Counted from the first letter of the stretch, positions 17,720 through 37,469 are shown. The stretch is 64,000 nucleotides of DNA from Dictyostelium discoideum (GCA_000004695.1 CM000150.2:1984001-2048000), one strand, 5' to 3'. Program-made: numbers and translations. Notes: generated by a model not told the origin, from the letters alone.

Positions 17720-17847
17720 AAGTTTTTCCCTTCAAAATTCACAAAACTTTATTTTTTGAAGGGAAAAACTCAATTTTTAGTTGCCCCTTCTTGAGATGAA
17801 TCTGATTTAATTAAATAGGTTACAGGTGCCTTTTAAGGTGGTATGGT

Positions 17848-17949
17848 TTTTTTTGAATTGGATAACGCAATTATTAGTTGCTTCTCCTTGAGATGCTAGA
17901 TCTCATTTTATTGTAATATTTTTTACCAGTTCTCCAAAAGAGGGGTTAG

Positions 17950-18001
<52 letters not shown>

Positions 18002-18300
18002 TTTGGAATTTTGAATTGTATTATTACTTTTGATTAAAACATCTTTTTTGTCCAAACTTTTTTCTAAATCTTTTTTTAATTTATCGTCGGCTTCGTGATT
18101 GATGTTGATGACACATTTGAATTGTTTTTTTTTATTTGTGTTTTACCAGGGTCATTTTCGAAGATAATTTCATCAGAAATACCGATTGATGGACTACTTT
18201 CGTCCATTTTATAGTCGTCTATTTTCTTTTGGGTATTACAGTTTTGTTCTATTTCAACCAAATGTTTTTTATTTGTTCCAGAAGCTTGAGACAATGAATT
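17848..18300 (-). mobile_element. 3'-terminal fragment of a minus-strand TRE5-like retroelement: repeat R followed by an oligo(A) tail (seen as T8 on the plus strand).
   Basis: About 270 bp (17856-18125) are ~90% identical to 37490-37680. Both copies are preceded on the plus strand by a T run, i.e. a minus-strand A tail. Both contain the end of an ORF (...INHE(A/P)DDK(L/I)KKDLEKSLDKKDVLIK). Confidence 0.45.
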
Positions 18301-18379
18301 GGCTATCTCACAATGAAGACCAAGTGCGGATAGAATAGTTGAAAAGATATTTTAATGATTCTTATATTTTTTATTAAAA

Positions 18380-18830
18380 TTATTTATTTGTTTTATTTAA
18401 AATAGTTGGTGGTTCAATTTGTTTTTTTCTTGTCCAATTTCATCATTTTCTTTTATCACATCACATAATCTAACAATTTTTCCATTTATATACTGAAGAT
18501 TTGTTAATAATTCGGTTCTTCCATTAAAAAATTTTTTTTGATAAAGTTGGTATATTCACTGAGGCTCATACCCTCCATTCCTTGACCAGAAACCATTTTG
18601 CAATCTTTAAAGTAACCTCTTGAGAATTTATAATGATTAAAAAGGATAATGTCAATTATTTTTACCATTTTTTCTTTACAATCGGCTGTGCACACATTAG
18701 GTTAAAACATTGGAAATTCATTTGGATCGGTTAATAACCATAGGTATTTATTCTTATCTTCCTCAGCTTCTTCAACGGAAAGATGTGGGCACTTATTATT
18801 AGCTCTATCTTTCATTATTTAAGTTGTGAC
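18380..18830 (-). pseudogene. Family A pseudogene (A4), frameshifted.
   Basis: Minus-strand segments YLWLLTDPNEFPMF and MCTADCKEKMVKIIDIILFNHYKF... (in another frame) and ...INGKIVRLCDVIKEND are collinear with the intact family A protein at 25231-25689 (LLDQDEFPKI...CTEECKEKMKEIY...DGKPVRLCELPPGV). Confidence 0.45.
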
Positions 18831-19299
18831 TATAAATATGTTTGTGTGATAATGTTTTATTTAATGCTAGTAAAAAATGTTAAAAAAAAATAATAATGAT
18901 AATTTAATTATTATTTAAAATTAAAAAAAAAAAAAAATAGAAAAAAACTTTTTTTTATGATGTTTTTTTTTGAAAATCAAAAATAAAAAAAACCAACACA
19001 AAAAACAACACCAACAGTTTTTTTCTATTTTTTTTTTACAAAAATAGAGACACAGGGAGTTTTTTTTCTTTTCTGCCATTACTTATTTTTTTAGTTTTTT
19101 TTTTAGAAATGCTAGGGTTACCTTCAAACAATAAAAATATTTATTTAATGTATATTTTTATTTATTTTTTTATTTATTTTTATTTTTTTTTTTGAATATA
19201 TAAATACATTTCTTTTTTTTTCATCAAAATAACAAAAAAAAAAAAAATGAAAAAACTATATAGATTATTATTATTCTAATAATTTTTTTATTATAAACA

Positions 19300-20454
19300 A
19301 AGGGGAGGCATAAATGAGAAGATTGACATCTGCTTTCTATGATCCTCCAGCTTACCCCCATCCTCATACTGGATATCCCATGGGTTTGTTTGCCGGCAAG
19401 AGATAAAGATCAAATTTGTCAAGCACCCGGTATTTATATTTATTTCTCAAATACTCCACGACCTTATCCACCACGATTGGTTTCTCACCCAGTTACACAA
19501 CCTGTTTATTCGATTGGAAAATCAATTAATGATATTAGAAGTAGGGTTAAGGTCCATAGTGAAGATGATTTCCCCCATTTGATTAACACCCTAATGGTTT
19601 GCTAATGAGGTTCCCATGTAATAATGAACGTTCTGATAGTAGACCAAGTTTTTCTGAAGTAGCGTTATTAACAATGTTTGCAACCATTAAAAACTACATT
19701 TTAGGTGTCAAAGATAGTGATATTATAGTTTTTGATGACAATGGAGAACCATTTGATATTTTAAGAACGTTTTATGGAGTTAATAATAATAATCCATTTC
19801 GTACTTCTATTCCTCTCATCCAAGCTAATGGAACTGCTAAATTTGGATTCGATCATATGGTTGATTCCACACTTTAACCATTAGCTCCTCCTTCCATAGA
19901 TGTTATCAATGACACTAAATCAATTTTCCCAATAGGTATTCTATATGAATGTGGAAAACTACTTGATGGAGATTATAGTAATTTTGGTCAAGAAGAATCT
20001 GCCAATGGGGTATGTAACCCATGCAATAGAAAAAAAGAAAGTGAAGAGAAAAAATCAAATCCAATCAAATTCAAAAATCCACCATTATCTTACCGTTTAG
20101 AAATTAGCAATAAGTTTAGTAATTTGGAATATCAAAATGCCAAAGAAAATGGTCTTCTAGGAAAAAGTCTAGTTGAAACAGAAAAGCCATCAAAGCCATC
20201 AAAAGTTGGTCTTTTCACTAGGTTTGGCCGTTGGTAAAGGTCTTTTTGTTCCAGAGAAAAAAAGTAATTCGCTTCCTGGCAAATTCAAAGATAGTAATAT
20301 TGAAATGGTAGAGGTAAATCCTGGAGAGGAACAAATAAGTGAAGCGGCGGGCGTTGAGCATAGTCAAATTAGATATAGAGGCACAAATTACTTTTTTGAA
20401 CTTGGAGAAGCTGCTGAAGAGGCTGCTATGATTATCATATCATATCTTTTTTAA
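19300..20454 (+). pseudogene. Family B locus (B1): several adjacent ORFs in different frames (19339-19605, 19599-19877, 20173-20454).
   Basis: The segment GYP(M/W)...GIYIYFSNTP is shared with the fragment at 31222-31446 (GYPWVC...KHPGIYLIFVNSP). The frame changes around 19380. GC content is locally above the window average. Confidence 0.3.
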
Positions 20455-21130
20455 TTTCTTGCACCTCTTTTACGTGCAAAGTTACCAGGTTTGGGTATAT
20501 ATCATTGAGTTTCTTGTGCAGTTGCATAAGTTCTAATTGGCTCTTGTCTTTCTCTGTTTCTTTGCAATCGTCTTCTTTCACTTTCTTCTTGCATCAACCT
20601 TCTTCTTTCTTCTTGTCCGGCCAATCTTTGTTGTGTTTTTTTAATTTTTTTTAATTTTACCTTTTCAAGATCTGCTTCAATTTCTTTTTTTTGACGGGCA
20701 CCCATCGTTTTTTTTTAAAAAATAAACCTAATGATTTATACTTGGTTATATTTAATAGTTGAGAATTTTTATTTTATGACATTGGTTTTGAATTATTTTT
20801 AAAAAAATCATTTTAAATTTTCTTTGATTCATTACATTTTTATTTCTATCTAATGATTTTATATTAATGATCAATAGAAAATCCAATAGCCACATAGGAA
20901 TTCTATAGAAAATCACTGGGAAATTTTGGTTTGATTACCTTTATAATGGTTATTTTCTAAAGATTTTCTATAGAAAACCATTGGGTAAACAGTTGTTTCT
21001 ATAGGAAATCTTTAGAAAACAATCATTGGAAATCGTTGAATTTTTCCTTTTCTCAATTTTTTAATAGTTTTCTAATGGGTCACATCTATACCGTTATCTA
21101 TTGAAAACCATTCCAACAAAAAAATCTAAT
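20447..21130. repeat. Left arm of a large inverted duplication. The right arm is 24430-25053; arms are ~90% identical and each is about 650 bp.
   Basis: The reverse complement of 24430-25053 matches 20447-21130. This includes the small basic-protein gene and 4-5 internal copies of the motif tctatagaaaa(c/t)ca(t/c)tgg. Confidence 0.75.
20502..20705 (-). CDS. Small basic Arg/Glu-rich protein, arm copy 1 (67 aa), truncated by a premature stop relative to copy 2.
   Basis: MGARQKKEIEADLEKVKLKKIKKTQQRLAGQEERRRLMQEESERRRLQRNRERQEPIRTYATAQETQ then TGA. The paralog at 24794 continues ...AQRYIPKPGNFARKRGARN. The homologous codon here is TGA where the other copy has AGA. Confidence 0.5.
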   Translation of the reverse strand: MGARQKKEIEADLEKVKLKKIKKTQQRLAGQEERRRLMQEESERRRLQRNRERQEPIRTYATAQETQ

Positions 21131-22918
21131 GGATTTCGATAAAGCAATATTAAATTATAAAAAATAAAAAAAAAAAAACAATTCAAATAGATGGTTTCAT
21201 TAAAAGAATATTTTAAAAAAGATTAAGGTTTTTATTTTAAAGAATTTTTATATTGATTTCGTAAAGGAAATCATTAAATGTTTTTAAAAAATGGTTTTGA
21301 ATTAAATGATAGCTAAATATTTCTTTACCAAGCTTCTTCAGCTCAATCTTTAATGAGTTCATAACCTTCTTCTGCAGTGATTCTAATTCCATCACCTACT
21401 TCACGTGTAGTATTGCCGATACCATCACCTACATCATGTGCAGTATCACCCCATGCTCATATCTAGATGCATTATCGGAACTTGGAAAAAAAAAGGATTA
21501 TGAACATGGTTTTGATTTCTCTGTTGAATTAAATGAAGATGGTAGCCTTCCAGATTTTCCAAATACTTTAGATCATTAAAACTGATAAAAAAAAAAAAAA
21601 AAATTAAAAAAAAAAAATAAAGATCATTACATAAACAAAACCAATTAAGGTTTTATTTTTTTTATTTTTATTGTTATCATTTTTTTTTTTAATTTATTGG
21701 AATCAATTTGGTATTCGATTTCAGCAGCAGCAATATATTCTTTTTTGGTATTCATTATTTCATTTTAAAAAAAAAAAATTAATAAAACATTATTAATATT
21801 TTTTTTTTAAAAATAGTTTTTTTTTTTTTTTTGAAATAGAATTAAAAAAAAAATTTAAGGAACTGGGATATTATTAACCATTATTCTTTTAGTACATATT
21901 TTTTTAATGGTGATTTTTTTTCCTCTCAAAAAGGTGCTAGTTAAAAAAAAAAAAAAAATAAAAAAAAAAAAAAGAAAAGCATTGATTAAAAATTTCATTG
22001 CCATAAAAATTAAATTGTCTTAGTTGGCACCTGAGATATTTTTTTTTTTTAAAAAAAAAAATTTTTTGATTGATTGGAAGATATTTTTTTTTTTTCCTTT
22101 TTTTTTTTTGGTAATTATTAGACAACCACAAACTCAAAGAGAGATTTACACAATAATTTATGATATTGCTTGTCCACATATACCAGGTACGGAGAATCCA
22201 AAATCATCTTTTAAATTTATGGACAGGTCCCATCTTCTTTAGGTTTTAATGATGCATAAAGCATTGCAGTACTCTTGTATTTGTCAAAAGATTCTACCAA
22301 ATCGGAGATATATTCGGCCGTGCTGCCATCAGGAATCTCTAAATCAAAAAGTGGTTCATATGTTCTCCAATCATTTAAATCATCTGAGAAATTCATATTC
22401 CGTTGCTTTTTTATGTGAGTTTTACTTGTTTTTTTTTTTCAAATTTTCATTTTATTTTTTTTTTTTATTTTTTTTTTTTCCAAATAAAAAAAATGTTTTT
22501 CGAATTTTTATTTTATTTTATTTTTATTTTTTTTATTTTTTTATTCTTTTATTTTTGTAATGTTGATGAATGATTGAATTAAAAATATAATTTACAAAAT
22601 TTTAATAAACTTATTTTTTTCAAGTTTTATTTTTATTCTTATTTTTATTTTTTATTTTTTAATTTTTTTTTATTTTATTTTTTTTATTTTTATTTTTATT
22701 TTTTTTTTTATTTTTTTATTTATTTTTTTTATTTTATTTTTTTATTTTTTGTAATATTAATGAATAATTGAATTAAAAATAATATACAAAATATAAACTT
22801 ATTTTTTCAAGTTTTTATTTTTATTTTTTTCTTTTTTTCTTTTATTTTTTTTATTTTTTTTTTTTTATTTTTATTATCTTTTTTTATTATTTTATTTTTT
22901 ATTTTTTTTTCCATTTTT

Positions 22919-23847
22919 ATGTATTTTCCTATTTTCTATTTTAAATTTGATATTATGAAATTTTTCCACATTTCTAAATTAATATTATTTTTTTTGTTTA
23001 TTTTTATAAATTTTTGTAAATGTCAACGTTTTGTTGGTACTCTTCCTCCTCAAAGAATAAGTGAAATTGTTAATTTTCAATGGAATAATGATATTATGTT
23101 TATAAACAGAGGTAGAAACAGATGGCCGGATATAGAACCCTTTGATGGAAACGGAGTTTATTTCGTATTTAGGCGAATGTTCAAATCATAATGTTTCTTA
23201 GAAATTTTGAACCTCCTAAGGCTGTTCATATGGAAACTTGGTTTCTTTCTGTTTTTGGATGTCCTTATAATAGCATAATTGAAGGAGGTTTAGGTGTAGC
23301 AGCATCAGGATATGGTGCAGGTGGATGGGTTAACTTCTTTAACACTGCTGATAGACAAGATGTTGTTGACTATATTCTCACCGAGACCCTTACAAGACCT
23401 GCTGACTTTTTAGATCACCCAAATTATCCTCGTGCTCCATCAATCATCAGAAAAATAGATGAATGCGAGCAAAACCTCACAAACTTACAAAACCAAATGG
23501 TGAGCCAGCAAACTAATATTGCGGATCTTCAAACACAAAATACAAACCTACAAACTCAAGTGACTAATCTCCAGAATCAAGTAACAGATCTTCAAAATCA
23601 ACTCCAAACTCATCAAAGTGGAAATAACTTTATGGCTGAGACACTCATTTTGGCACTTCTCAAATACAATGGACCGAGTCTAATTGTTTCAAATCCACTT
23701 CTTCGTGGTTGGTATGAAGCAAGAAAAAATGGTGGTGGTGGTGGTGGCAAGTGTGGTATCGGTGGTGTTGGTGATGGTAAGAATGGTGACGGCAAAAACG
23801 GTGACGGTAAAAACGGTGCGGATGGTGCAGATGGTGCAGATGGTTAG
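22919..23847 (+). CDS. Secreted coiled-coil / Gly-rich protein in the centre of the inverted duplication: two ORFs overlapping by 1 nt (22919..23191 and 23191..23847), a frameshift or pseudogene.
   Basis: A signal peptide MKFFHISKLILFFLFIFINFCKC is present. Heptad-like repeats (TNLQNQ/TDLQNQ) are present. The C-terminus reads GGGGGGKCGIGGVGDGKNGDGKNGDGKNGADGADGADG. The reading frame breaks at 23191. Confidence 0.3.
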
Positions 23848-23913
23848 TTAAAATCTGGCTGTACTTGTCCAGAAACCCCTCCCTGTCCAGTAGTAATTCC
23901 ATGCCCAGAGCCA

Positions 23914-24261
23914 GTGGTTTGTAATATAGCAAAAATTCAAATTCAATTGAATTCAACCATAAAAAGTTTGGATGAATGCAAAAAACAAAAGGACCAAACC
24001 AATGATGACCTCAACGTCTGCAAGTCCCATAAAGATGAGATACAAGATTGGCTCACCGACTGTCAAAAAGAATATGTTAAACAAACAAGTCATTCATCCA
24101 AAGATGATACTCTAATTTCTCTCAGAAACTGCCAAGCCGAATACAGAAAAGAAACATTCAAAAAAGATAAGCTCTGCCGTGGTTTGTCCAAACATATCAT
24201 TGGTTATTTAGATTTCTGTGAAGATAAGGTAGAAAAGCTGAGACTCGCTAATTGTGAATAG
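23914..24261 (+). CDS. Small Cys-containing ORF (115 aa), possibly continuous with the upstream gene.
   Basis: ORF from the track. It has regularly spaced Cys residues, and the frame is open upstream from a GTG (LKSGCTCPETPPCPVVIPCPEPV). Confidence 0.25.
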   Translation: MVCNIAKIQIQLNSTIKSLDECKKQKDQTNDDLNVCKSHKDEIQDWLTDCQKEYVKQTSHSSKDDTLISLRNCQAEYRKETFKKDKLCRGLSKHIIGYLDFCEDKVEKLRLANCE

Positions 24262-24793
24262 TTTTCTCATTTTTTTAAAAAAAAAAAAACAAAAAAAAAA
24301 AAAATCATACAATGATTTCCCTTTATGAAATCAATAAAAAATTCTTTAAATAAAATTTTTAATCTTATTTTAAAAAAATTCTTTTAATGAAATCCATTAT
24401 TTTCATTTTTTATAATTTTATTGAACTTTATTGAAAATAATTAGATATTGTTATTTCCAATGGTTTTAGATTGATAACGGTATAGATGTGACCATTACAT
24501 AGAAAACTATTAAAAATTGAGCCAAAGAAAAATCAACGATTTTTAATGGTTGTTCAAAGATTTCCTATAGAAACCATTATTTACCCTATGATTCTCTATA
24601 GAATTCCTAGCTAATGGATTTTCCAATGACCATTAATATAAAATCATTAGAAAGAAACAAAAATGTAACGAATCAAAGAAAATTTAAAATGATTTTTTTA
24701 AAAATAATTCAAAACCAATGTCATAAAATAAAAATTCTCAATTATTAAATATAAACATGTATAAATCATTAGGTTTATTTTTAAAAAAAAACG

Positions 24794-25048
24794 ATGGGTC
24801 CCCGACAAAAAAAAGAAATTGAAGCAGATCCTGAAACGGTCAAATTAATTAAAATTAAAAAAGCACAACAAAGAATGGCTGAACAAGAAGAAAGAAGAAG
24901 GTTGATGCAAGAAGAAAGTGAAAGAAGACGATTGCAAAGAAACAGAGAAAGACAAGAGCCAATTAGAACTTATGCAACTGCACAAGAAGCTCAAAGATAT
25001 ATACCCAAACCTGGTAACTTTGCACGTAAAAGAGGTGCAAGAAATTAA
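24794..25048 (+). CDS. Small basic Arg/Glu-rich protein, arm copy 2 (84 aa, apparently intact).
   Basis: MGPRQKKEIEADPETVKLIKIKKAQQRMAEQEERRRLMQEESERRRLQRNRERQEPIRTYATAQEAQRYIPKPGNFARKRGARN. Inverted paralog of 20502-20705. Confidence 0.5.
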   Translation: MGPRQKKEIEADPETVKLIKIKKAQQRMAEQEERRRLMQEESERRRLQRNRERQEPIRTYATAQEAQRYIPKPGNFARKRGARN

Positions 25049-25230
25049 AAAAAGAAAAAAATAAAAATAATTAAAAGAAATAAAAAAAAAAAAAAAAATT
25101 AAAAATTAAAAATTTAAAAAAAAAAAAATAAACTAGATCTCTTATATAAGAGTTATAAAAAAAAAAATAAAAGTAAAATAAAATAAAAAAATTTAAAACA
25201 GTTCTTTTTATTTAATTAACACTTTTTTTT

Positions 25231-25689
25231 CTATTCATCTTCTTCAGAATCAGGTAGGTTTTTTGCATCAAAATCACATTGTACACCAGGTGGCAATTCA
25301 CATAATCTAACAGGCTTTCCATCTTTAATACCAACTTTCATTGCTTTTATGACCATTCTAGCATATTCATCTTGGGGAGAGATAGGGGGTGGAGTACTGA
25401 AAAATTCTCGATACATCCAAATATCACATCCTCGAGGATTTTTTCCCAAGTTATATTCAAAAATTCTGCTGTCACTGTAATATTTGTTTATAGTCTCAAT
25501 ATAACGTTCGAATGTTATTCTATAAATCTCCTTCATTTTTTCTTTACATTCCTCTGTGCAGTAACCAGGCTGAATCTTTGGAAACTCATCTTGATCTAGT
25601 AATTCATCAAGGTAAAGAGTGAAATCTTCACTTTTTTTAAGCTTTCTTAAAGAAAATTCATCATGTTGGCAACAATATTTACTTGTCAT
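25231..25689 (-). CDS. Family A protein, intact copy (A1, 152 aa).
   Basis: MTSKYCCQHDEFSLRKLKK...DEFPKIQPGYCTEECKEKMKEIYRITFERYIETINKYY...DGKPVRLCELPPGVQCDFDAKNLPDSEEDE. Paralogs or fragments lie at 18380-18830, 25983-26195 + 30800-31056 and 35079-35411. No recognisable upstream exon. Confidence 0.55.
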   Translation of the reverse strand: MTSKYCCQHDEFSLRKLKKSEDFTLYLDELLDQDEFPKIQPGYCTEECKEKMKEIYRITFERYIETINKYYSDSRIFEYNLGKNPRGCDIWMYREFFSTPPPISPQDEYARMVIKAMKVGIKDGKPVRLCELPPGVQCDFDAKNLPDSEEDE

Positions 25690-25982
25690 TTTTATTTAAA
25701 ATTATACGTTATTAAATAAATAAAAAATAAATTAAAAAAAAAAATGGGTTAAAAATTGAAGTAAAAAAAAAAAAAATGAAAAAAAAATGAAAATAAAAAT
25801 TATTGACTTTTTTCCCACAGAAATGAGAAAAATAAATGAAATAAATAAAGACAAAAATAGAAAAAAAAAAACAAATTTTTTTAAAATGGGTGTAATTTTT
25901 ATATAATTTTTTATTTTTATTAATGGCTAATGGTGCGACAAGGGTAAGGGCTACAGTATGCAGTAATGGTGGCTATTCATCA

Positions 25983-26195
25983 TCACTCTTCTTCTTTTGA
26001 TTCACTTTCTCCTTCTGAATCGGTTAGACCAGTTGTTTCAATTTCTACATCTACACCCCTTGGCACGTCACATAATCTAACTAGTTTACCATTAAGTATT
26101 CCCGCTTTCATAGTTTTTAAAATACTATCACGGTACTCCGGATCAATCTTCTCCTCTTCTAAACAATCATTGTATGTCTGACAGCCAACTGTCAT
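25983..26195 (-). pseudogene. C-terminal half of a family A gene (A2), separated from its N-terminal half by the E1 insertion.
   Basis: MTVGCQTYNDCLEEEKIDPEYRDSILKTMKAGILNGKLVRLCDVPRGVDVEIETTGLTDSEGESESKEEE starts exactly at the element boundary (ATGAC on the minus strand, equal to the GTCAT direct repeat). It aligns to the C-terminal half of A1. Confidence 0.6.
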
Positions 26196-26398
26196 TGTTG
26201 TAGGGAATTTTCCATAAAATTTCACTACAGTAGCGTAGTGAATTTTATTATTTAATTTCACTACAGTAGCGTAGTGAAAAAAAAAAATCACTGACCTTAA
26301 ATTTTTTTTTTTTTCAAAAAACAAATAAAGTTTATTAAATTGAAATTTTATTTTTTGTTTTAATTATTATTTTATTTATTTTTATTATAATTATTGTT

Positions 26399-26438
<40 letters not shown>

Positions 26439-26706
26439 CAATTTTTTTTTTTTAAATTTTTTTCAATTTTTATTTGTTTATTAAATTGTAATTTTATTTT
26501 TTGTTTTAATTATTATTTTATTTATTATTATTGTTAATTTTTTTTTTTTTTCAATTTTTTTTTTTTTAATTTATTTTTATTAATTTATTTTTATTAACTC
26601 CCTGAGTTGTTCAATTGCTTGATTTACCATATCACTGTAAACACTGCACACAATTGAATTTTTTCTAGCTTTGTTACCTCTGGTGCATTTGATGTTTTTG
26701 CATTTT

Positions 26707-27465
26707 CACAGCGAAGAAAAAACCACCTTTAAATTCGCTTTAAATTAAATTTAAATTTGCTTTAAAGTCCTGAATTAAAGCAATTTTAAAGGTAATTTTA
26801 AAGGTAATTTATAAGGTTACTTTAAAATCACCTTAAAAATTACCTTTAAAATTACCTTTAAAATTACCTTTTTAATGGCTTTAAAAGCGAGGTCCTGAGT
26901 TCGAAGCCGTTATTTAACGGATAAATTTTTTAAAATTTTTTTTTTAATTTTTCAAAAATTACCAAAAGGGATTCGATCCCCCGACCCTCTATCAAAGGGT
27001 AGTCTCATCAACCATTACACCATTTGATTGCTTTGATGAAAAATTTAAAAATGATAGAATATTTTATCCCCATTTTTTTTTTCTAAAATTAGATCTTTTT
27101 TATTAAAAACCTTAAATTTATGTTTAAAGGAAATTTAAATTCACTTTAAATCTACTTTAAATATACTTTAAATCCTATTTAAAATTAATTTAAAATAAAT
27201 TTTAAAGGTATTTTTAAATATCTTAAAAATTATCTTAAAAATTACCTTAAAAATTACCTTTAAAATCACCTTTAAAATCACCTTTAAAATTGCTTAAAAA
27301 TTTATTTTAAAGCAAATTTTAAAGGCATTTTTAAATATCTTAAAAATTACCTTAAAAATTACCTTAAAAATGAATTTTTTAAACGCGGCTTTAAATTCAA
27401 TTTAAATCCAATTTAAATCAACTTTTCTTTAAATTTGCTTTAAAGGTGCATTTTTCTTTGCTGTG
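26707..27465. mobile_element. Nested 759-bp MITE-like element. It has ~27-bp terminal inverted repeats (cacagcgaagaaaaaaccacctttaaa / tttaaaggtgcatttttctttgctgtg), subterminal 12-bp periodic repeats (ttaaaggtaatt / taaaaattacct) and a tRNA-like core.
   Basis: Termini and repeats were read from the sequence. The internal segments ggtcctgagttcgaagcc (about 26893) and 26968-27031 (minus strand) have tRNA-like D and T arm sequences (TGGTGTAATGGT, GGGGGATCGAATCCC) but do not fold into a complete cloverleaf by hand. Confidence 0.45.
26968..27031 (-). other. tRNA-like fragment (Ile-GAU-like anticodon arm ACCCT-TTGATAG-AGGGT). No valid acceptor stem could be found.
   Basis: Hand folding only: the anticodon stem-loop and a T-arm-like GGGGG-ATCGAAT-CCCTT segment are present. 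No matching acceptor stem was found. Confidence 0.25.
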
Positions 27466-27974
27466 TTCCTTTGTATACAAAAAAGTCCAAATATAATTCG
27501 TTTTCTATTACAGTTTTTACACAATGTTGGTGAAATTGTTTTGATTTTAATTCTAATGCTTCTAACATCATATTTGGATTTTTAACGATTAAAGCATCAC
27601 CACTATTTACATATAGTACTTTGGCTGCTTTTTCGAGGAATTTAGTCAAATTTTCCTCTGAATCTAACTATTCTTCATTGCCATATTCAATGGCTAAATT
27701 TCTTAAGAGTTTTATCGAATCTATTAATTCTTCGATCATTCTTTTTTTTTGAAATTTTTTTTTATTTTGTTTTTTCAATTTTTTTTTTTTATTTTGTTTT
27801 TTCAATTTTTTTTAAGTTTTATTTTTTTTTATTTTTTTTTATTTTTTTTAACAAATGTAATTTTTTTTTATTTTTTTCAATTTTTTTTTTTTTTAATTTT
27901 TAATTTTTTTTTTTTTTTTTAATTTTTTGTGTTGATTTGTGTTTTTTTTGTTTTTTTGATTTGGCCACTTGTTT

Positions 27975-28961
27975 TTATTTTCTAATTTCCCCATACCCCC
28001 TTCTATTAATTGCAACCAAATCAAGTTCTAATTTTTGTGTCCTTGTTAACTTTGTTTTTGCAACTTTTTTTGAAGGTATCACATTAACGATTTTTCCTAT
28101 TGATGGTGATTTGGAAGGTGATTTAAATGGTGATTTAAAAGGTGAATTGGAAGGTGATTTAAATGGTGAATTGGAAGGTGAAATGGATGGTGATTTGGAA
28201 GGTGATTTAAATGGTGATTTGGAAGGTGATTTAAATGGTGATTTAAATGGTGAATTGGAAGGTGAAATGGATGGTGATTTGAGAGGTGATTTGGATGGTT
28301 TAGAATGTGATTTTAAAGGAGGTTTATTAACAATTGGTATCTTATGAGGACGGCCTCTGAGACGTTTAACAGTTGTTACTATACCACTACCAGATTGTGG
28401 TATAGTATACGATGGTATTATTTGCACTTGAGGTATTGGTGGTACTATTTCTTTTAAATTCATATCCTTTCTCAAACAATTCATTAAATTTGGCGCTGTT
28501 GGATTATTATTTAAAAATGGGAGTATTTCTTCTTGTTCCATTTCATTATTGAGTTTGTGTTGAAATGGATTATCGTTAATGATAGGTGGAATATTTGATG
28601 GATTGTTAAGAGCATCTTCCAAAACCCTAAATGGATCATTTTGTGTTACCAATTGATGCAAGTTGAAATTGGATAAATCCTTACCAAGATTTTTAATAAA
28701 CTGAACCAGAAATTCAATAACTTTCCCATCATTATTTAAATAAAGACCAGAAGTAAAAGAATCAATATCTTTTTGTATGTTTGGCGATGTTCTAAAAATA
28801 TCAACTGTTGATTGTTTATAAAGAACCAACTTGTTACCTCCTACAAAACCAGAGTATAAACCTTTTTTTTGAAGGCTATTGATTCCATCTTCCAAAAATT
28901 CAAGTTTATAAAGTTGTTTAGTGTCTTCCTGTATTACCTTATGAATTTTACACAAAATCAA
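27975..28961 (-). CDS. AT-hook / SPKK-repeat DNA-binding-like protein (328 aa), inside E1.
   Basis: An RGRP AT-hook (KRLRGRPHKIP) is followed by about 20 repeats of (K/S)SP(S/F)K. These are encoded by a 12-nt periodic DNA repeat (ggtgatttaaat/ggtgaattggaa on the plus strand, 28090-28320). The N-terminal 200 aa are non-repetitive. Confidence 0.4.
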   Translation of the reverse strand: MILCKIHKVIQEDTKQLYKLEFLEDGINSLQKKGLYSGFVGGNKLVLYKQSTVDIFRTSPNIQKDIDSFTSGLYLNNDGKVIEFLVQFIKNLGKDLSNFNLHQLVTQNDPFRVLEDALNNPSNIPPIINDNPFQHKLNNEMEQEEILPFLNNNPTAPNLMNCLRKDMNLKEIVPPIPQVQIIPSYTIPQSGSGIVTTVKRLRGRPHKIPIVNKPPLKSHSKPSKSPLKSPSISPSNSPFKSPFKSPSKSPFKSPSKSPSISPSNSPFKSPSNSPFKSPFKSPSKSPSIGKIVNVIPSKKVAKTKLTRTQKLELDLVAINRRGYGEIRK

Positions 28962-29031
28962 TATTTTCTATTAGAATTAAATATAAAATTTGTTAATTAT
29001 TACTGTTTCATATATTATTAATCTTTATGTT

Positions 29032-30268
29032 TTAATTACTTACATTATTTTTTTTAATTTCTAGAAAGAGTACAGTATCACCAACTTTCAATCCCTTTGG
29101 TGGTTTTGAATTCCATTGATTTTGGTAACTTGTGAGATTTTCAAGAATAATAGCTGTTCTTTCTTCTTTTGAAACATCTGAAACACCAATTGATTGAGAG
29201 TCTTGTTCTGATTGAACATTAATAAACAAAGGAACAATACCAACAGCTTGAGATGGTGTCATTTTAATTGTTCTTGTTTTTGTATTATTGTAATCATACA
29301 AAGCTTGTTTTAATAGTTCAGAAAGAGACCTAGAAGTACCATCAAGAAAACTAAAATTTATTTATAAATGATTAATTAATAAACATATCGATAATTTATA
29401 TTGTTCACAATATCATACTCTTGTTGTTTTAATTTTGAGATCCTCTCCTTGATAGTTCGATTCAATCTTTCTACCATACCTTGAGTTGTTGGTGTACGAG
29501 GAGCTCCATGTGCTGACTTGGAGCCTGGAAAAAGTTTTAGGAATTCTTTTTGGACTTTGTTTTTAAATTCACGTCCATTATCGCAGTGCCATACTTTCAC
29601 AGGTTTGCCAAAGTACGTGAGAGCCAAAAAATTGTATATGGGAACTGTTCTCTTTGTTGTCAAACATCTAAAAAATAAATGATAATTAAAATAAAAAAAG
29701 AAAACTAATAAATTAATAAATAAAAAATAAATACCTTCCAGTAGCAAATTTTGTAAAAGAATCTATGCATAGAATAATGTAAACAACATCGGTGTCGTAC
29801 GGTTGTACAGAGTCATATTGGATAAGATCATCTAGTTTAGTTAGTATCTTTTCATTATCATCATCGTATGTAACTTTTTCTTTATGTTCACCTTTAATTG
29901 ATGTTAAATCATAAACCAATCTTGAGTATTCCTCGGTATCTACAATTGGAGCAAAATCCTTTGTTATACCTATTAATTTATTTAAATTATTAAAAGAGTT
30001 TTAATATAAAAGTTACAAAACATCATATAAAAATGATTGATACCAAACCTTTTATTCTATTTCGTTGGCAAATGTCACACGTATCTACTGCATCAGATAC
30101 AAAAGAATACAATCCCATATTATAATATTTAGTCTTGTAGTTCCCATAGGTTGCATCTCTTCCTATATGACCTTTATGCATTTCTTCCCAGAGTGATACC
30201 ATTCTATAATCATTAATTACTTCTAAACACACTTCTTTTGATATATTTCTATCTCCGCCACAATTCAT
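29032..30268 (-). mobile_element. Degenerate Ty3/gypsy-type LTR-retrotransposon integrase remnant (Skipper/DGLT-like), fragmented across three or four ORFs.
   Basis: An HHCC zinc-binding motif is present (HKGHIGRDATYGNYK...CDICQRNRIKG). An integrase core is present (KVWHCDNGREFKN...SAHGAPRTPTTQGMVERLNRTIKERI). A C-terminal SH3-like KVGDTVLFLEIKK is present. Stops and frameshifts lie between the pieces. Confidence 0.6.
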
Positions 30269-30487
30269 GACTTTTTTTTCAATTCTAAATAATTTTTCTT
30301 TTCTGTTTCTGTTTTTTATTGGTCAGAATTTAAAAAATGATTGTGTTATTGTAAGGAAAAATATTTACTCATCATGTAAAAATTTATAATTTTTATGTTT
30401 AGTATTTTCAAAATTATTATCTTCAATAAATTTTAAATAATTTATAATTTCATTTATTTTATCTTGTTTCATTTTGGGAAAATGAAA

Positions 30488-30522
<35 letters not shown>

Positions 30523-30799
30523 TGTTGGGGAAAAAAAAAAAAAGTTTTGGCGCAAAAAAAAAAAAAAAAATAAAATAAAAAAAAAAAAAAATAAAATAAA
30601 AAAAAAAAAAAATAAAAAAACTTATATAGAACTAATAATCAAATAAAAGATAATAATTTAATAAACTTTATTTGTTTTTTGAAAAAAAAAAAATTTAGGG
30701 TCAGTGATTTTTTTTTTTCACTACGCTACTGTAGTGAAATTAAATAATAAAATTCACTACGCTACTGTAGTGAAATTTTATTGAAAATTCCCTACAACA

Positions 30800-31056
30800 G
30801 TCATTATTGGTGGGTCTGGGAAACTTTTGAATATTTTACAATCATCATAGTAATTATTAACTGCCTTGAGATATCCTTCGAAAGTTATCCTATAAATTTC
30901 TTTCATTTTTTTTTTACATTCTTTTGTACAGAGTCTATTTATCTCAGGGAATCTATCCTGGTCAAATAATTTATCATCGTATAAAAAGGGGCCAAGTTTT
31001 TTAAGGTTTTCTATTGAAAAGCGGTCATGTCCGCATCCACCTACTTTTCTCAACAT
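30800..31056 (-). pseudogene. N-terminal half of family A gene A2. The reading frame runs into the E1 terminal repeat (...PDPPIM then TVVGNFQ, stop).
   Basis: MLRKVGGCGHDRFSIENLKKLGPFLYDDKLFDQDRFPEINRLCTKECKKKMKEIYRITFEGYLKAVNNYYDDCKIFKSFPDPPIM aligns to the A1 N-terminus. It ends at the GTCAT/ATGAC direct repeat. Confidence 0.6.
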
Positions 31057-31221
31057 AATTTGTTGTGTGAAAATAAAAAAAAAAATTAAAAAAATAAATT
31101 AAAAAATAAATTAAAAAAAAATTAAAAAAAATAAATTAAAAAAATAAAAAATAAAATTTAAGTTTTTATTCATCTATAAAAACACAAAAAATTTTGATAA
31201 TATTAATAATTATAATTAAAA

Positions 31222-31446
31222 ATGTTTAACAGACTGTTATATCTATATTTTTTATTAGCTTTATATTTTAACCATATCCATTGCCTGGAAAAATATGCGT
31301 CGAAATTTTACAGACCACCAACAGCAGTACACAGACAAACTGGTTACCCATGGGTTTGTACAAGATATTTGGATGATACTAAAGAAGTGGTACAAAAAGA
31401 ATGCAAACACCCGGGTATATATTTAATTTTTGTAAATTCACCATAG
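31222..31446 (+). pseudogene. Family B fragment (B2, 74 aa ORF).
   Basis: KFYRPPTAVHRQTGYPWVCTRYLDDTKEVVQKECKHPGIYLIFVNSP is similar to the B1 segment at 19339-19450. DNA similarity continues up to the E2 boundary. Confidence 0.35.
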
Positions 31447-31480
31447 TCTACCTCTTTGGTTAATTTGTTCCATACACCTA

Positions 31481-31696
31481 TGTTGTAGGGAATTTTTTTT
31501 GAAATTTCGCTTTCTAAACGGCAGTGAATTTTTACACTAAAATACACTGTTTATGCATGGTGTAAAAATTCACTAAATTTTTTTTTTTTTATAATTAAAT
31601 TAAAAAACAATTTATTTAATCAGAAAAATAAAAAACCAATTTTATTCAGTTATTTGCTTGTTATTTATTTTTTTATAACAAAAAAATTTAGTTTGC

Positions 31697-31754
<58 letters not shown>

Positions 31755-31837
31755 CAATTATTTTTTTCAATTTTTTTTTTTATCGATTGTTTCATTTTTG
31801 GGGAATAAAATAAAATTGTTCGATAAAAAAAAAATTG

Positions 31838-31900
<63 letters not shown>

Positions 31901-32102
31901 GGTTTATATTTTAATTATGGTATTCATTATTGTTTATATAATTATTTTTAGTATTTATATTATTTATAATTATAAACTCGAGTTAATAGAATTATTATTA
32001 TTATTATTATTATTTAAATGTGGGTCAACTATAATTAGTGTCTTAGTTCACTTATTTAATATTAACTTATTTTTGTGTCTTCGTTACATAAAAAAAAAAA
32101 TG

Positions 32103-32134
<32 letters not shown>

Positions 32135-33156
32135 AAAAAAAAAATAAAAAAAAAAAGAAAAATAAAAAAAAAAAGAAAAATAAAAAATAAAAAAAAAAAT
32201 AAAAAAAATAAAAAAAAAATAAAAAAAAAAGAGGGTACCCCCCCCTAAAAAAAATAATAATTTTAATAATAATAATAATAATAATAAAAATGAAAATTAA
32301 TATTTAAATAAAAAAAAGAGGGTACCCCCCTAAAAAATGTTGGAATTTAATTAAATTTATTTTTTATTTTTTTTATTTTTTAATTTTATTTTTTTTATTT
32401 TTTAATTTAAAAAATGTTGATATAAAACAAAAAAATTTTTTCAAAAAAAACATTTCAAATTATTTTTAACAAATTATATTATTATACTTTAATGTATGTG
32501 TACAATTTTAAAAATTTAAAATTTGTTCTATTTTTATCAATCATATCATGTATATTTATTAATTAAATCTCATATATTCTTATTCCCAGCAAATGACATC
32601 AGGTGGAATCGTACAACCAGGCCAAAATCTCTCACAACGTCCAATAAACGGCCAATATGGCTGGGGACCAGCAGCAGGAAGTGCCGCAAATCCACGTGGC
32701 GATCTCCGTGGTTACACTTACAATATTAGATAGTTTCGCTGTCTATTTCTGAATATTCAGAAATCTTTGTTTAATGCCAAAAATAGTAGATATCTATTAT
32801 ATTTTCTCATTTTATAAATCTGATAAGATCTGTCTTAAATAAAAAAAATCAAATTTTTTTATAAATTAAAAAAAATCATTTCCGCAAATCCGCAAAAAAT
32901 AGCGGGAATTAAATTATTTATTGTTTTTTAAATTGTTTTTTTTGCGTGATATGAAATGAACAGCAAATGAACAACGTGTGAGTTGTATTAGCTGATGGTA
33001 ATATTTATTTATTTTTGTTTAATTAAAAAATTTTTTATAAAATAAAAAAAAAAAAAAATTTTAGTGAATTTTTACACTACGCATAAACAGTGTATTTTAG
33101 TGTAAAAATTCACTGCCGTTTAGAAAGCGAAATTTCAAAAAAAATTCCCTACAACA
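31481..33156. mobile_element. E2: 1.7-kb element with ~97-bp terminal inverted repeats sharing the terminal 16 bp (tgttgtagggaatttt) with E1. Flanked by a 6-bp direct repeat CACCTA. The interior is non-coding.
   Basis: 31481-31577 is the reverse complement of 33061-33156 with one 3-nt difference. Each arm contains a 15-bp-stem hairpin (agtgaatttttacac...gtgtaaaaattcact). CACCTA lies at 31475-31480 and 33157-33162. The interior has poly(A/T) tracts and two GAGGGTACCCCCC boxes (32231, 32318). Confidence 0.55.
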
Positions 33157-33584
33157 CACCTATCTATGGGTGGTATGACTTTTAATATGGTTACTTCAGC
33201 ATTTTCGAAATTAATATTTGAAATCATTTGATAGTAAAACGTTAGACAATTTGAATAGGTTTGATTGTTTATGATTTTCAAAACCGATGTATCAAAGTAA
33301 ACAATATCATACTCTGACGATGACAAAGCATTACATAAATCATTAGCTTCCACAGCCAATAGGTATTTTTGTAAAGTTTCAAACTGATCATTAGCAAATG
33401 GAAACTTTGAGTACATATCCTTTAGGAGAGCATTAGCTACAGTGGAATCAGTAGGTTCACCGAAAAATCCAACCTTTTGACCAATAAGGATTTCTTTTCT
33501 TTCATATGACTCTTTAATTCTATTTAAAATTGTTGTTTTTCCAGAACCAATTGGACCTGTAGTAATTTTAATCTTAGGAGGCAT
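33135..33584 (-). CDS. P-loop NTPase, deoxynucleoside/nucleotide kinase-like ORF (149 aa). Its 3' end runs into the E2 terminal repeat, so it is likely interrupted.
   Basis: A Walker A motif ITTGPIGSGKTTILNRIKE is followed by GFFGEPTDS, resembling the dNK EGNIGSGKTT...EP pattern. The last 6 codons (VVGNFF) are encoded by the E2 TIR. Confidence 0.35.
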   Translation of the reverse strand: MPPKIKITTGPIGSGKTTILNRIKESYERKEILIGQKVGFFGEPTDSTVANALLKDMYSKFPFANDQFETLQKYLLAVEANDLCNALSSSEYDIVYFDTSVLKIINNQTYSNCLTFYYQMISNINFENAEVTILKVIPPIDRCVVGNFF

Positions 33585-33891
33585 TTTTTTTTTTCTTTTT
33601 TATTTATTTTTAGATATTATCTTGTTTTATTTTTTTTAAAAAAAAATAATAATTTATATCCATTTTTAAAAAAAACAAAAAAGCTTCCATGGTGTTCTTT
33701 TTTTTAAAAAAAGAATTCTATTAAAGAATAGTTATAAAAATAAAAAAAAAAAAAAAATAAGGGAAGAAAAAAAAAAAATCTTGGTTTTGATTTTCAAAAA
33801 AAAAAAAAAAAAAAAAAAAAAATTAAAAATTATAAAAAAAAAAAAAAAAAATATCTTCTTTTTTTTTAAAAAAAAAAAATAAAGAATAAAA

Positions 33892-34811
33892 ATGAACATT
33901 CATGTAAAATCAGTTTGTATTGATAATGGCATCATAATTTTTAAAAAACAAGATCAGGCATTTAATTATATGAATAGTGTCAGCTCTATTGAAAAATATT
34001 TTATATTTTCATATGAATTTGGCGATAAAGGTCAACGTGCTTTTTTAGTATCTCCAAGTATTGAAAAACTCTTCAAATGTATAATGAATACACCATTGAA
34101 TCTTCGTCATTATTATGAATTGATTCCACAATTTGAAAATTGTAATTTGTATTTAGATATTGATTTTAAGTTATCACCCGAGAAAGCAGAAGAAAATAAA
34201 AGAAACAAACAACTTTATAAAAACAATCTTATCGATAGAATTATAATCGACGAAGTAAAACCCATCCAAAGAAAACACATCCACAGGTCTCTGATGAAAT
34301 CGATAGCATTGAACCATTATTGCTCTTCTCCTATCAATACGATAAATATTCTTTACATTTACATTGGCCATTGAAAACCTTCCATTGGAAAGACAATGAA
34401 CATCTTGGAGAATGGGTAAAACAATTTGTTATTGAAAGATCCATCTATATACCAGAGCTCAACTATATCGATACGTCAGTTTATTCAAAATTCAGAAATT
34501 TTCGTCTAATGGGAAATAAAAAATTCAGTAAGAGTATTGAAACAATACTTAGAACAACATCTAAAGATAAAACCCTTGAAACCTTTGAAAAAACTATAAT
34601 AACATCATCGAATTTTCAAAAACAAAACGATACTGGTATCGATGAGAAAATCCTTTCATCTAATGGTTTCGAATCTTTAAAGAATACTGGTAGATCAACA
34701 GTTGATGTTAAGAGGAATCAACACCAACGAATTTCTTGTAATGATTTGATTTCATTGGAAGGTATGGGTCTCTCATTGGACGAATGTAATGATATTATAT
34801 TTTGTTTTTAA
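33892..34811 (+). pseudogene. Archaeo-eukaryotic primase (AEP) superfamily primase-like gene with one frameshift (ORFs 33892..34374 and 34320..34811 overlap).
   Basis: Motif I is hhhDhD (CNLYLDIDFK), preceded by FIFSYEFGDKGQRAFLV. Motif II is sxH (YSLHLHWP). Motif III is DTSVYSKFRNFRLMGNKKFSK. The order and spacing match p48/viral-type DxD AEP primases. The frame shifts between motifs I and II. Confidence 0.5.
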
Positions 34812-35078
34812 TTTTTATAGAAGATTTTTTCAATTAAAATTCTATAAAAATAAAAAACAAAATAAAAAAAATAAATTTTATAAAAAAAAAAAAATGTTTG
34901 AAAATATAAAATCATTAATCTTCTCAGCAGTTTCTTTATTATTCTCTTTTTTGTATTATCATAGTGATTCAATTATATCTTTATTCACTCAAAATCTTGG
35001 TGAGGCAGTTTTGGAAACAATAGACGAAGTAATTCATAAACCCCAAACCTCATTACAACAAGAATCATTAAAATTACA

Positions 35079-35411
35079 ATGTACATGCAAACCATTATAA
35101 AACAATCGAAAAGTATCGATGAAGATTTGGTACAAGGAACTAAAAAATGGGAAGAAGTAAGAGAGAAGTATTCTTTTACTGGAAGTAGATTAGCTGCTGC
35201 CATTGGAATTGATCCATACACTTCACAACATGATTTATTTCATTTTTTATATACAATTGTTGGAATGTGCATTCATGATAAATATAATTTTGAAGATTTG
35301 TTCCAAAGAGTAGGCAGTGGCACATCATTTGCTGTTATCGAAGAATTCATGAGGGGTGATCTTTTTCCTGATATCAAAAATGGATGTAGTGAAGAATGTA
35401 AAAAAAAATGA
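35079..35411 (+). CDS. Family A-related ORF (A3, 110 aa) with an N-terminal YqaJ-like exonuclease motif, C-terminally truncated.
   Basis: QGTKKWEEVREKYSFTGSRLAAAIGIDPYTSQHDLFHFL fits the N-terminal motif of YqaJ/lambda-exonuclease-like nucleases (W..R...TAS..aai.G..P..s...L). It is followed by CIHDKYNFEDL...DLFPDIKNGCSEECKKK, which aligns with the family A N-terminus (CCQHDEFSL...DEFPKIQPGYCTEECKEK). Confidence 0.35.
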   Translation: MYMQTIIKQSKSIDEDLVQGTKKWEEVREKYSFTGSRLAAAIGIDPYTSQHDLFHFLYTIVGMCIHDKYNFEDLFQRVGSGTSFAVIEEFMRGDLFPDIKNGCSEECKKK

Positions 35412-37469
35412 TACAATATACACAGGCCGTGTTTAAAAACTATATGAACTCTGTATGTTGGTACATAATGATGTTAATATACCAAAAAAGTTTGATGATA
35501 ATGGGCCCTCGTGCTTTTCAAATTATATCCATTCTTTGGTAGGTGGTTTCAAGGAAGAAAACTCTTGTTATTTCAACTATACGCCACGTCTCGAAAATAA
35601 TAGTAGTAAATTTCCAGATTATCCAAAAGAAAATTCTCAATAAAAATAAAAAGTTTATAATTTTTTTATTTATTTTGTTAATTTTTGTTTTTATTTTAAA
35701 TAAATAAATAATTTTAATAAATAATAATTAAAAAAAAAAAAATCATTGAAATCTAGTTGTAATTTTTATTTTATTTTATTTTTTTCTTTAAATTATTTTT
35801 CTTTAATCATTTTTATTTTGAATAATGATCTGAGACTACACGGGAAAAAAACCTAGTAAAATGTTAAAATATAATTAATTAAATTAAATTTTAATAAAAG
35901 TTTGTAATGCTATTTATAAATTAATAAAAATTATTAAAAAATAAGATTGATAGTTGCAAAAAAATAAAAAAAATAAAATTTATAAAAAAAAGAAACTTAT
36001 TATAAAAAAAAAATAGCATTTTTTATTAAAATTTAATTAATACTATAAAATAAGAAAATATATTAGAATTTTTAAATTTTATTAATTCGGGGTTATTTTT
36101 TTTTTTTAAAAATAATTATAATAATTATTAGAAAATAGGATATTTTATAAAAAAATAAGATTATTTATAAAAAATGTAACCTTTATTATTTTTTAATAAA
36201 ATATATTTAAAAAATAAGATAAATAATAATAAAAAAAAAATAATAAAATATATTAAAAATTGAAACATTATATAATTTTTAACATATTTTATTAAAATGT
36301 AATAAATACTAAAAAAATGAGATATTATATAAGAAGGTTATAAATTTTATTAATTATGGTTTTAATAATAAGATGTTTAAAAAATAATAATATAAATTAT
36401 AAATTGGAAAATTTTATAATATTCAACATATTTTATTAAATATAAGTAAAAAATAAGATAAAAAATAAATTTTATAAAAAAAAAAAATATATATATATTA
36501 AATGAAACTTTTTATTATTTTAAAAAATATAGGAATTGAATTAATAAAAATAAGATATTATAAGAATAAATATGCGAAAACAAGAAAAATTTTATTAATT
36601 TTGAATTTGGTTTTTTTTTTATTTTTTTATTTTTTTTTTTTTTTTATCCATTTTCAAACTAAATCTGAATCGATTGTTTTTTTTTTTTTTTTTTTTTTTT
36701 TATCTGGATAAAAGTTGTTTGTATTTATTTAAAAAATTATTTGATTTTACTTTTTTTTTTTTTTTTTCATATTTTTTTTTTTTCATCATTTTTTTTTCAT
36801 TTTTTTTTCACCTTTTTTTTTACCAAAGTAAGTAAATTTTCATTATTTGTTTGAATAAAATCAGTAAACTAATTATTAAATTAGAATAAATAAAATTGAT
36901 GAAACAACTTATAAAAAAAAAAATAAAAATAATAAAAAAAAAAAAATAAAAAAAATTTAGAAAAATTAAAAAATATGTTTATTTTAAATATTCTTTATAT
37001 AGTATAATGTTTTAATTAATATCTTTTGGTATTATATGTCAACACATTTCATAGTATAAAATGAAAAAGAAAATTTATTTTCAGTTTTATTATCTTATTA
37101 CTCACAAATATAAATATGTTATAAATTAAATAAATATATAAATATATATTAATTAAAAGAAATAGATATTTAATTAAATTATATATAATTAAATAGAAAT
37201 AAAAATTAAATTGGTTATTCAAAAAATAAATAAAAAAAAATAGAATATAATAAAAAATAATTCTTTTAAGTCCTTCTATAGTATACCACTTCCTTTGCAT
37301 ATTTAAAACAAATAACCTCTTTAAAATTAAAATTCATATATTGAAATTCTTAAATTGTAATTTTAAATATTTGTTTAATGGATAACCGTAATAAATCTAT
37401 TTTCTATTAATTTTTAATTATTCTTTCAAAAAATAAAAAATTATAATTTTTTTATATTTTTTTTTTCAA

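Follow-up and report, generated by a model that had tools for sequence, protein, structure and literature searches.

A 759-bp segment (26707-27465) of a 64,000-nt stretch of Dictyostelium discoideum DNA (GCA_000004695.1 CM000150.2:1984001-2048000; hereafter the window) is an independent mobile element, nested in a Tdd-4 DNA transposon and recently inserted in strain AX4. The window has ~20% G+C, lies on AX4 chromosome 1 and encodes AX4 gene DDB_G0268734 exactly, at 25231-25689. The observations below argue strongly that the segment belongs to a short (~0.55-0.76 kb), non-coding family of class II, cut-and-paste elements, most likely of the DDT type, which would be mobilized in trans and which carries a tRNA-like block with A and B boxes.

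Recent insertion into a Tdd-4 transposon

The insertion was examined by comparing the window with the orthologous locus of another assembly (GCA_054883475.1; L010). Alignment of L010 to window positions 15700-26707 plus 27445-35700 gave one genuine mismatch in ~19 kb; the remaining differences were homopolymer-length indels, and mismatches located at alignment ends or in poly-A/T runs. The same Tdd-4 is present at the same place in L010, without the 759 bp. The empty site in L010 reads GCATTTTCCTTTG, exact and free of any footprint, and AX4 reads GCATTTT, followed by the 759 bp and then TTCCTTTG. Comparison of these junctions shows that AX4 has 761 extra bases, i.e., the element and a TT. Another Tdd-4-like copy, in repeat-cluster locus L001, is also uninterrupted at the insertion point. 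As a near-identical strain has that Tdd-4 copy without the insert, the transposition was recent, and a filled/empty polymorphism at ~1 single-nucleotide polymorphism per 19 kb is direct sequence evidence of very recent movement of a putative DNA-transposon family.

The window element (copy A) is flanked by TT on both sides, and a second complete copy (copy E, described below) by TG on both sides. The next base is C in both cases, and a 3-bp duplication (TTC and TGC) of an element that starts with ACAGC therefore fits copies A and E equally well. The flanks of a third complete copy (copy B) fit TTA/TTA.

The host transposon (E1) is a Tdd-4 element, and it has every Tdd-4 feature that was tested. 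Its inverted ends have arms of ~250 bp (26185-26438 and 30557-30810) and it is surrounded by a 5-bp target duplication, GTCAT (26191-26195 and 30800-30804). Its exons match the Integrase_H2C2 (zinc-binding) and rve core domains, and its open reading frame (ORF) 2 is 89% identical to DDB_G0282919, which is entered as Tdd-4 in PMC12405889. The published TDD-4 is 3,839 bp long and has 5-bp duplications (PMC2836005). Both the ends and the duplication length of the nested element differ from those of Tdd-4, which places the nested element in another family.

The insertion has removed the end of a small 3'-terminal ORF of Tdd-4. In L010 the uninterrupted ORF reads ...FVYKGKCKNIKCTRGNK...ELIKIN before its stop codon. 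The AX4 sequence reads ...FVYKG and then continues into element-derived codons (TQQRKMHL), reaching a stop after eight. An in-frame TAG follows codon 23 of this ORF in both strains (window 27668-27670, minus strand; L010:8793-8795). The annotated L010 product has 110 aa, which suggests that a short intron removes the TAG.

Structure of the element

The element is bounded by imperfect inverted ends (CACAGCGAAG... and ...CTTTGCTGTG), with 51-nt arms that show 75% complementarity. Each end has a single, exact match to the terminal 15-mer CACAGCRAAGAAAAA, which is conserved in three further copies (B, C and E); in the family the terminal inverted repeats start with CACAGC(G/A)A(A/T)GAAAA. Inverted termini at these two positions had been proposed in an earlier reading of the window (the original prediction), as had arms composed of tandem 12-mers. 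The arms are indeed repetitive: arrays of 11- and 12-bp units were called on both sides by Tandem Repeats Finder (TRF; Table 1), and a 24-mer comprising two 12-mers has 10 matches at ≤3 mismatches in the window, all of them within the element, where 0.01 would be expected from shuffled sequence. In each copy of the family, 11-bp (TTTAAATNNNN) and 12-bp (AAAATTACCTTT) motifs form such subterminal arrays in both orientations.

The left-arm 12-mer arrays stand head to head and form a 130-bp palindrome, which is plausibly a candidate transposase-binding array by analogy with the subterminal repeats of other transposons. As RNA, this palindrome folds into a ~60-bp hairpin (-51.7 kcal/mol, z = -9.6). 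The Rfam model for mir-548, a family derived from MITEs (miniature inverted-repeat transposable elements), scored 39 bits against the palindrome, below its cut-off of 90. Matches to mir-548, MIR7696, mir-968, SpF41 and TtnuCD3 were all far below threshold, and were attributed to the hairpin, to the tRNA-like arms or to a UGAUGA string, and not to membership of these families.

The element has no coding capacity, its longest ORF being 37 low-complexity residues, and the 759 bp have no 3' A-tail or LINE-like (long interspersed nuclear element) tail. They are not an intron, as the ends are CACAGC...GCTGTG instead of GT...AG. No second copy was found within the window, where a permissive BLAST search returned AT-rich noise only.

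Other copies of the family

Repeat-cluster loci, rich in DIRS-1 and Skipper sequence, were retrieved by means of DIRS-1 proteins. Five of the D. discoideum loci anchored in this way (L001, L003, L005, L006 and L008; ~110 kb together) contain four copies of the element (B to E) and three end fragments, i.e., the family is enriched in these clusters. No copy was found in two further loci, L004 and L007, or in the D. citrinum locus L009, which as one 24-kb sample says little. A metagenome scan with a 21-mer from the conserved core returned no match. The flanks of copies B to E and of the three fragments are all different, and the element also stands alone in DIRS-1/Skipper sequence, apart from Tdd-4. 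Copy C is truncated by a Tdd-4-like end, and the two families therefore nest in each other in both directions. The exact empty sites in L010 and L001, the copies in unrelated contexts and the lack of coding capacity together bear out the proposal that the segment is a nested, MITE-like element, and the search for further genomic copies that had been recommended with that proposal was successful.

The copies range in length from 547 to 759 bp because 12-mer units have been gained or lost between them. A core of ~240 bp, which includes the decayed tRNA described below, is conserved in the family, and the element looks like two ends plus this core. The best-conserved part of the core adjoins the 5' side of the tRNA-like block; it is 91-100% identical between subfamilies and is kept even in copy D, from which the block is missing.

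At L003:7520-9607 lies a relative whose ends (CACAGCAAAGAAAATCACACCTTAAAA...) are close to those of the element and whose subterminal motif, GTCCTG, is shared with it. It is 2,088 bp long, non-coding and very A/T-rich; its interior differs from that of the element and recurs in part at L002:9023-9450. From these features it looks like a second non-autonomous family of the same transposase group.

Candidates for an autonomous partner were examined among the related ends with 12-mer arrays (L005:4946, L005:17434 and L003:7520-9607), all of which are non-coding or broken by other insertions. The L005 ends enter Skipper-like sequence after ~300 bp, and the ORFs nearby have no Pfam domain; the 2.1-kb L003 relative is non-coding; the L008 end is a 280-bp fragment within a Skipper pol gene; and an ORF considered as a partner gene (L006:17877-19486) looks like a host gene.

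A tRNA-like block in the core

Two tRNA-like pieces had been proposed in the centre of the element, a T-arm-like motif and a minus-strand segment, and both are present. The first is a B-box-like sequence that is kept in all five copies. The second, at element nt 253-323, contains an A box and a B box with a gap of 32 nt between them. Canonical tRNA numbering sets the expected spacing of the two boxes, and this gap agrees with it. With the ARAGORN threshold lowered to 80%, copy A gave a 71-nt cloverleaf on the minus strand at precisely these positions. The block of copy C has one extra G relative to that of copy A and was called at the default threshold as tRNA-Ile(GAT), with a 72-nt full cloverleaf in which six of the seven acceptor pairs and all anticodon-stem pairs form; copy C was the only copy called at that threshold. 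The Rfam tRNA model gave 17.0 bits for copy C and 14.8 bits for copy A, against a cut-off (gathering score) of 29 bits. A tRNA scan of the core thus returned a weak score where its complete absence would have told against the proposal.

Folding of the core had likewise been recommended; the tRNA-like block alone folds no better than shuffled sequence (z = -0.29). In contrast to the genuine nuclear tRNAs of the window, the block has an A/T-rich acceptor stem whose first base is A. A mitochondrial-tRNA origin was considered on the basis of the GAT anticodon and this A/T-rich stem.

Copies A, C and E have kept both boxes intact; in copy B both are mutated. Copies D and E form one subfamily, in which the block is present in E and absent from D. 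As copy E retains it, the block is ancestral to the family and was lost from copy D by a secondary deletion. Copy D keeps both arms without the block, its outermost termini being degenerate (left) or missing (right).

The window copy does not qualify as a functional tRNA gene, as it falls short of the covariance and cloverleaf thresholds. Judged by its sequence, the block is a decayed tRNA that a DNA transposon carries within it; the weak Rfam and ARAGORN scores and the boxes at canonical spacing support the second of two origins originally offered for it, namely a degraded tRNA gene that a transposon has trapped.

Family assignment and possible mechanism

Three D. discoideum elements, DDT-A, DDT-B and DDT-S, were reportedly described by Gloeckner et al. 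in 2001. The DNA transposons of this species fall into the groups Tdd, DDT and thug; the proteins that they encode are unlike any known transposase, and their expression and control have not been studied in detail (PMC5633606). The further copies of the present element lie in centromere-type clusters of just the sort in which DDT elements account for ~20% of the repeats, and in which tRNA pseudogenes also occur (PMC2665215); such pseudogenes would fit transposon-borne blocks like that of copy C. Barth et al. (2022) reported natural and tagged integrations of the retrotransposon TRE5-A at a rearranged fragment of DDT-B, 46 bp upstream of its A/B-box motif. Nucleotides 428-1 of the consensus (5,471 bp) are part of that fragment, and the authors asked whether the motif relates to DDT-B replication (PMC9012585).

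Because an A/B-box motif has been reported in DDT-B, the element is probably a deleted DDT-type derivative. The block lies 253-323 nt from the left end, on the minus strand and reading toward that end; this fits the terminal region of DDT-B at the level of its description only. By description, then, the element would be an internally deleted DDT-B-type derivative, possibly the published DDT-S, and we regard this as the probable assignment. The kind of element is already known, and the family is probably known too; in terms of annotation, a nested transposon of this sort is nothing unusual for a reference genome that has been studied so well. The literature searched gave no sequence-level description of DDT-S, thug-T or a MITE.

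A mechanism can be proposed on this basis. The family would have arisen by internal deletion of a DDT-type element, and its block would correspond to the A/B-box motif reported in DDT-B. By analogy with En/Spm, Ac and P elements, it may be mobilized in trans by the DDT-encoded transposase of a longer relative that recognizes the CACAGC ends and the 11/12-bp arrays. According to the literature, A and B boxes can load the RNA polymerase III factors TFIIIC and TFIIIB, and in doing so could attract TRE5-A.

Several observations weigh against parts of this interpretation. The target duplication is ambiguous in length, being 2 bp for copies A and E and 3 bp for copy B, and the 2.1-kb relative in L003 has no matching duplication (GAT and TAC flank it). 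No coding autonomous element with CACAGC ends was found in ~200 kb of Dictyostelium loci (~156 kb of them from D. discoideum). The DDT name, although probable, comes from the mention of the A/B-box motif in one paper together with the genomic distribution. ARAGORN made no tRNA call for copy A at its default threshold, no copy reached the cut-off of the Rfam tRNA model, and the copies cannot all be functional, because copy B is mutated in both boxes.

The last of these points bear on what the block does. It may be a neutral relic, captured once by an ancestor of the family and without a present role, and the chance of this is only a little short of even. The low Rfam scores, a fold no better than that of shuffled sequence, the changes to both boxes in copy B, the persistence of copy D without a block and the unusual acceptor stem would all follow from such a history. 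The pattern of conservation points the other way: between copies A and E the block is 93% identical and the adjacent core 91%, compared with 78-87% in the arms (84-87% where these consist of 12-mers), 66% in the spacer and ~70-90% in the ends of the copies compared. The A-B spacing is also canonical, and the A/B-box motif of DDT-B is a TRE5-A target proven in vivo (PMC9012585).

The assignment itself has a competitor, in which the family is not DDT but a separate, possibly uncatalogued non-autonomous family, thug-type or an unclassified centromeric repeat; this is unlikely, though it deserves serious weight. The loci examined yielded no long coding element that shares these ends, a minor family would also accord with the extrapolated abundance (~8 pieces in 110-130 kb of repeat cluster), and small centromeric repeats without a defined transposon have been mentioned (Gloeckner and Heidel 2009, PMC2665215). 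However, DDT-B is the sole D. discoideum DNA transposon reported to have an A/B-box motif, and the position of the block is consistent with nt 428-1 of that element. The element is also unlikely to be thug-S, which is described with an intron-containing gene and has a _TE gene model, whereas the element is non-coding.

In a reading that extends to function, the family is mobile at present and could be spreading a working tRNA-gene mimic, i.e., A and B boxes that load TFIIIC and TFIIIB, around the D. discoideum genome. We consider this doubtful. If true, the mimic would create new landing pads for tRNA-targeting retrotransposons such as TRE5-A, and possibly chromatin boundaries or RNA polymerase III units, and the AX4-specific copy in Tdd-4 would have transposed recently, in the time of laboratory strains or of near-identical ones. 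An ancestral and relatively well-conserved A/B-box block does provide a concrete context for the question raised in PMC9012585, namely whether the motif has a role in DDT-B replication or is a TRE5-A decoy.

The direction of the change, a gain in AX4, is taken from parsimony only. On a contrary reading, a long variant of Tdd-4 would have contained the 759 bp from the outset, and they would have been deleted elsewhere, or precisely excised in the other strain. This is improbable. Inverted ends and a TT duplication of its own set the segment apart, and it also occurs by itself in DIRS-1/Skipper sequence; less the insert, E1 measures 3,843 bp, in agreement with the length published for TDD-4 (3,839 bp); the same uninterrupted ORF is present in two independent Tdd-4 copies; and cut-and-paste excision usually leaves a footprint, none of which is seen. 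Finally, the suggestion in the original prediction of a tRNA-derived, SINE-like (short interspersed nuclear element) retroposon or a tRNA-primed reverse-transcription product draws on the tRNA-like segment with its A and B boxes, and can be set aside almost entirely, as the element is bounded by terminal inverted repeats of 51 nt, its duplication is only 2-3 bp long, it lacks a tail, and its block is internal (element nt 253-323) rather than 5' and was lost from copy D.

Table 1. Features of the element, of its host transposon and of related copies. Positions are in the window unless a locus is named.
Feature	Position	Strand	Remarks
Non-autonomous DNA transposon, copy A	26707-27465	+	759 bp; empty sites in L010 and L001; homologous copies
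Left target-site duplication TT	26705-26706		Read against the L010 empty site
Right target-site duplication TT	27466-27467		Read against the L010 empty site
Left terminal inverted repeat, CACAGCGAAGAAAAAACCACCTTTAAA...	26707-26757	+	51 nt; paired with right arm
Right terminal inverted repeat, ...GGTGCATTTTTCTTTGCTGTG	27415-27465	-	51 nt; paired with left arm
Left subterminal 11-bp repeats TTTAAATNNNN	26727-26766	+	3.6 copies (TRF)
Palindrome of head-to-head 12-mer arrays, candidate transposase-binding array	26759-26888		130 bp; 65-nt arms, 80% complementary, no spacer
12-bp array AATTTTAAAGGT (AAAGGTAATTTT-type)	26782-26826		3.8 copies (TRF)
12-bp array CTTTAAAATTAC (AAAATTACCTTT-type)	26820-26871		4.3 copies, 92% matches (TRF)
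B-box-like GAGTTCGAAGCC	26897-26908	+	Read from sequence; GGGTTCAAAGCC in copy D
Small hairpin CCGTTATTTAACGG	26907-26920	+	Overlaps GAGTTCGAAGCC
Degenerate tRNA (pseudo-tRNA)	26959-27029	-	A box, B box, Rfam, ARAGORN
B box GGATCGAATCC	26979-26969	-	32-nt gap to A box
A box TGGTGTAATGG	27022-27012	-	32-nt gap to B box
Best-conserved core segment	27030-27119		90 bp
Right-arm repeat region	27134-27419	+	Includes 117-bp internal duplication over 27155-27418 (TRF)
Right-arm 11-mers TTTAAATNNNN	27134-27173 and 27390-27419	+	TRF
Right-arm 12-mers (CTTAAAAATTAC)	27222-27371	+	12.8 copies (TRF)
E1, Tdd-4 (Ginger2/Tdd) DNA transposon	26196-30799	-	4604 bp; 3843 bp minus nested insert
Small 3'-terminal Tdd-4 ORF, 5' part	27466-27739	-	Broken by the element; ~41 codons cut off, resuming below 26705
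Copy B, complete	L001:4083-4629		547 bp; homologous to copy A
Copy C, truncated	L001:12236-11745		Right end cut by Tdd-4-like inverted repeat (L001:11735-12246)
Copy D, diverged	L003:16962-16410		Block missing
Copy E, complete	L006:2325-3039		715 bp; homologous to copy A
End fragments	L005:4946; L005:17434; L008:19511		Related ends with 12-mer arrays (L005 ends)

Other features of the host transposon and the window

E1 itself interrupts the coding sequence of a DDB_G0268734 paralogue. The region concerned is E1 with its flanks (25983-26195 and 30800-31056): on the minus strand, the paralogue's N-terminal part runs from 31056 to 30778 and its C-terminal part from 26200 to 25983. The E1 insertion is common to L010. 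Each Tdd-4 inverted repeat contains two copies of an 18-nt near-palindrome, CACTACAGTAGCGTAGTG, 37 bp apart (26225-26242 and 26262-26279, with mirror sites near 30715-30770), which may possibly be integrase-binding sites. ORF2 of Tdd-4 contains a 12-bp periodic coding repeat (28105-28299, minus strand; GGTGATTTAAAT / GGTGATTTGGAA) that gives SPSKSPFKSP-type repeats. This 12-bp unit is identical at 10-11 of 12 positions to the reverse complement of the AAAATCACCTTT unit of the small element. The likeness is probably due to chance between A/T-rich 12-mers, because BLAST alignment of the ORF2 repeat with the element gave just 63-65% identity over ~200 bp.

Elsewhere in the window, an inverted duplication of ~480 bp (20428-20890 and 24610-25071; 93-94% complementary) brackets a 3.7-kb segment, and one of its arms holds an 84-aa ORF (24794-25048). 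A pair of 153-nt inverted repeats (31481-31633 and 33004-33156) is 87% complementary; its members are 1.4 kb apart and are also present in the other strain. The window contains three tRNA sites (11560-11631, 13247-13318 and 39312-39385), comprising two tRNA-Thr(AGT) genes 1.7 kb apart and one tRNA-Arg(ACG) gene. The ORFs adjoining these genes have no retrotransposon Pfam match, and thus no TRE element is evident at them.

Comparison with known systems

The closest likeness is to DDT, and to DDT-B in particular: likewise from D. discoideum, this putative DNA transposon is enriched in DIRS-1-rich centromeric clusters and has tRNA-like A/B boxes in its terminal region, and the size of the present element would suit a short deletion derivative. 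In this comparison, which is by description only, copy A differs in being euchromatic (in Tdd-4, on a chromosome 1 arm), non-coding and just 759 bp long.

The En/Spm (CACTA) elements resemble it in their short inverted ends starting with CAC, in a duplication of 2-3 bp, and in 12-bp motifs that are arrayed, direct as well as inverted, near both ends. The subterminal arrays of En/Spm are bound by TNPA, and the subterminal repeats of Ac/Ds and of the P element bind element-encoded proteins. Compared by its ends, duplication and arrays, the present element differs from En/Spm in that its ends are CACAG, not CACTA; its duplication is 2 or 3 bp, against 3 bp for the CACTA superfamily. With MITEs such as Stowaway, Tourist and human Made1/mir-548, it shares the lack of coding capacity, inverted ends, a short duplication, multiple copies, strong hairpin potential and length variation through internal deletion. 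It differs from them in lying at the upper size limit, in having a complex conserved core and arrays instead of a simple palindrome, and in a copy number that appears to be in the tens, not thousands.

The tRNA-derived SINEs also have A and B boxes in a segment that is related to a tRNA; the element differs in having inverted ends, a tiny duplication, no tail and a tRNA part that is internal and dispensable. A final likeness is to isolated A/B-box pairs outside real tRNA genes, such as the A/B-box loci of the D. discoideum rDNA palindrome and the ETC (extra-TFIIIC) sites of yeast. To TFIIIC/TFIIIB, and as a target of TRE5-A, isolated A and B boxes can pass for a tRNA gene (PMC9012585). The site described here, known from its sequence alone, differs from those loci in being mobile, and could thus be copied around the genome.

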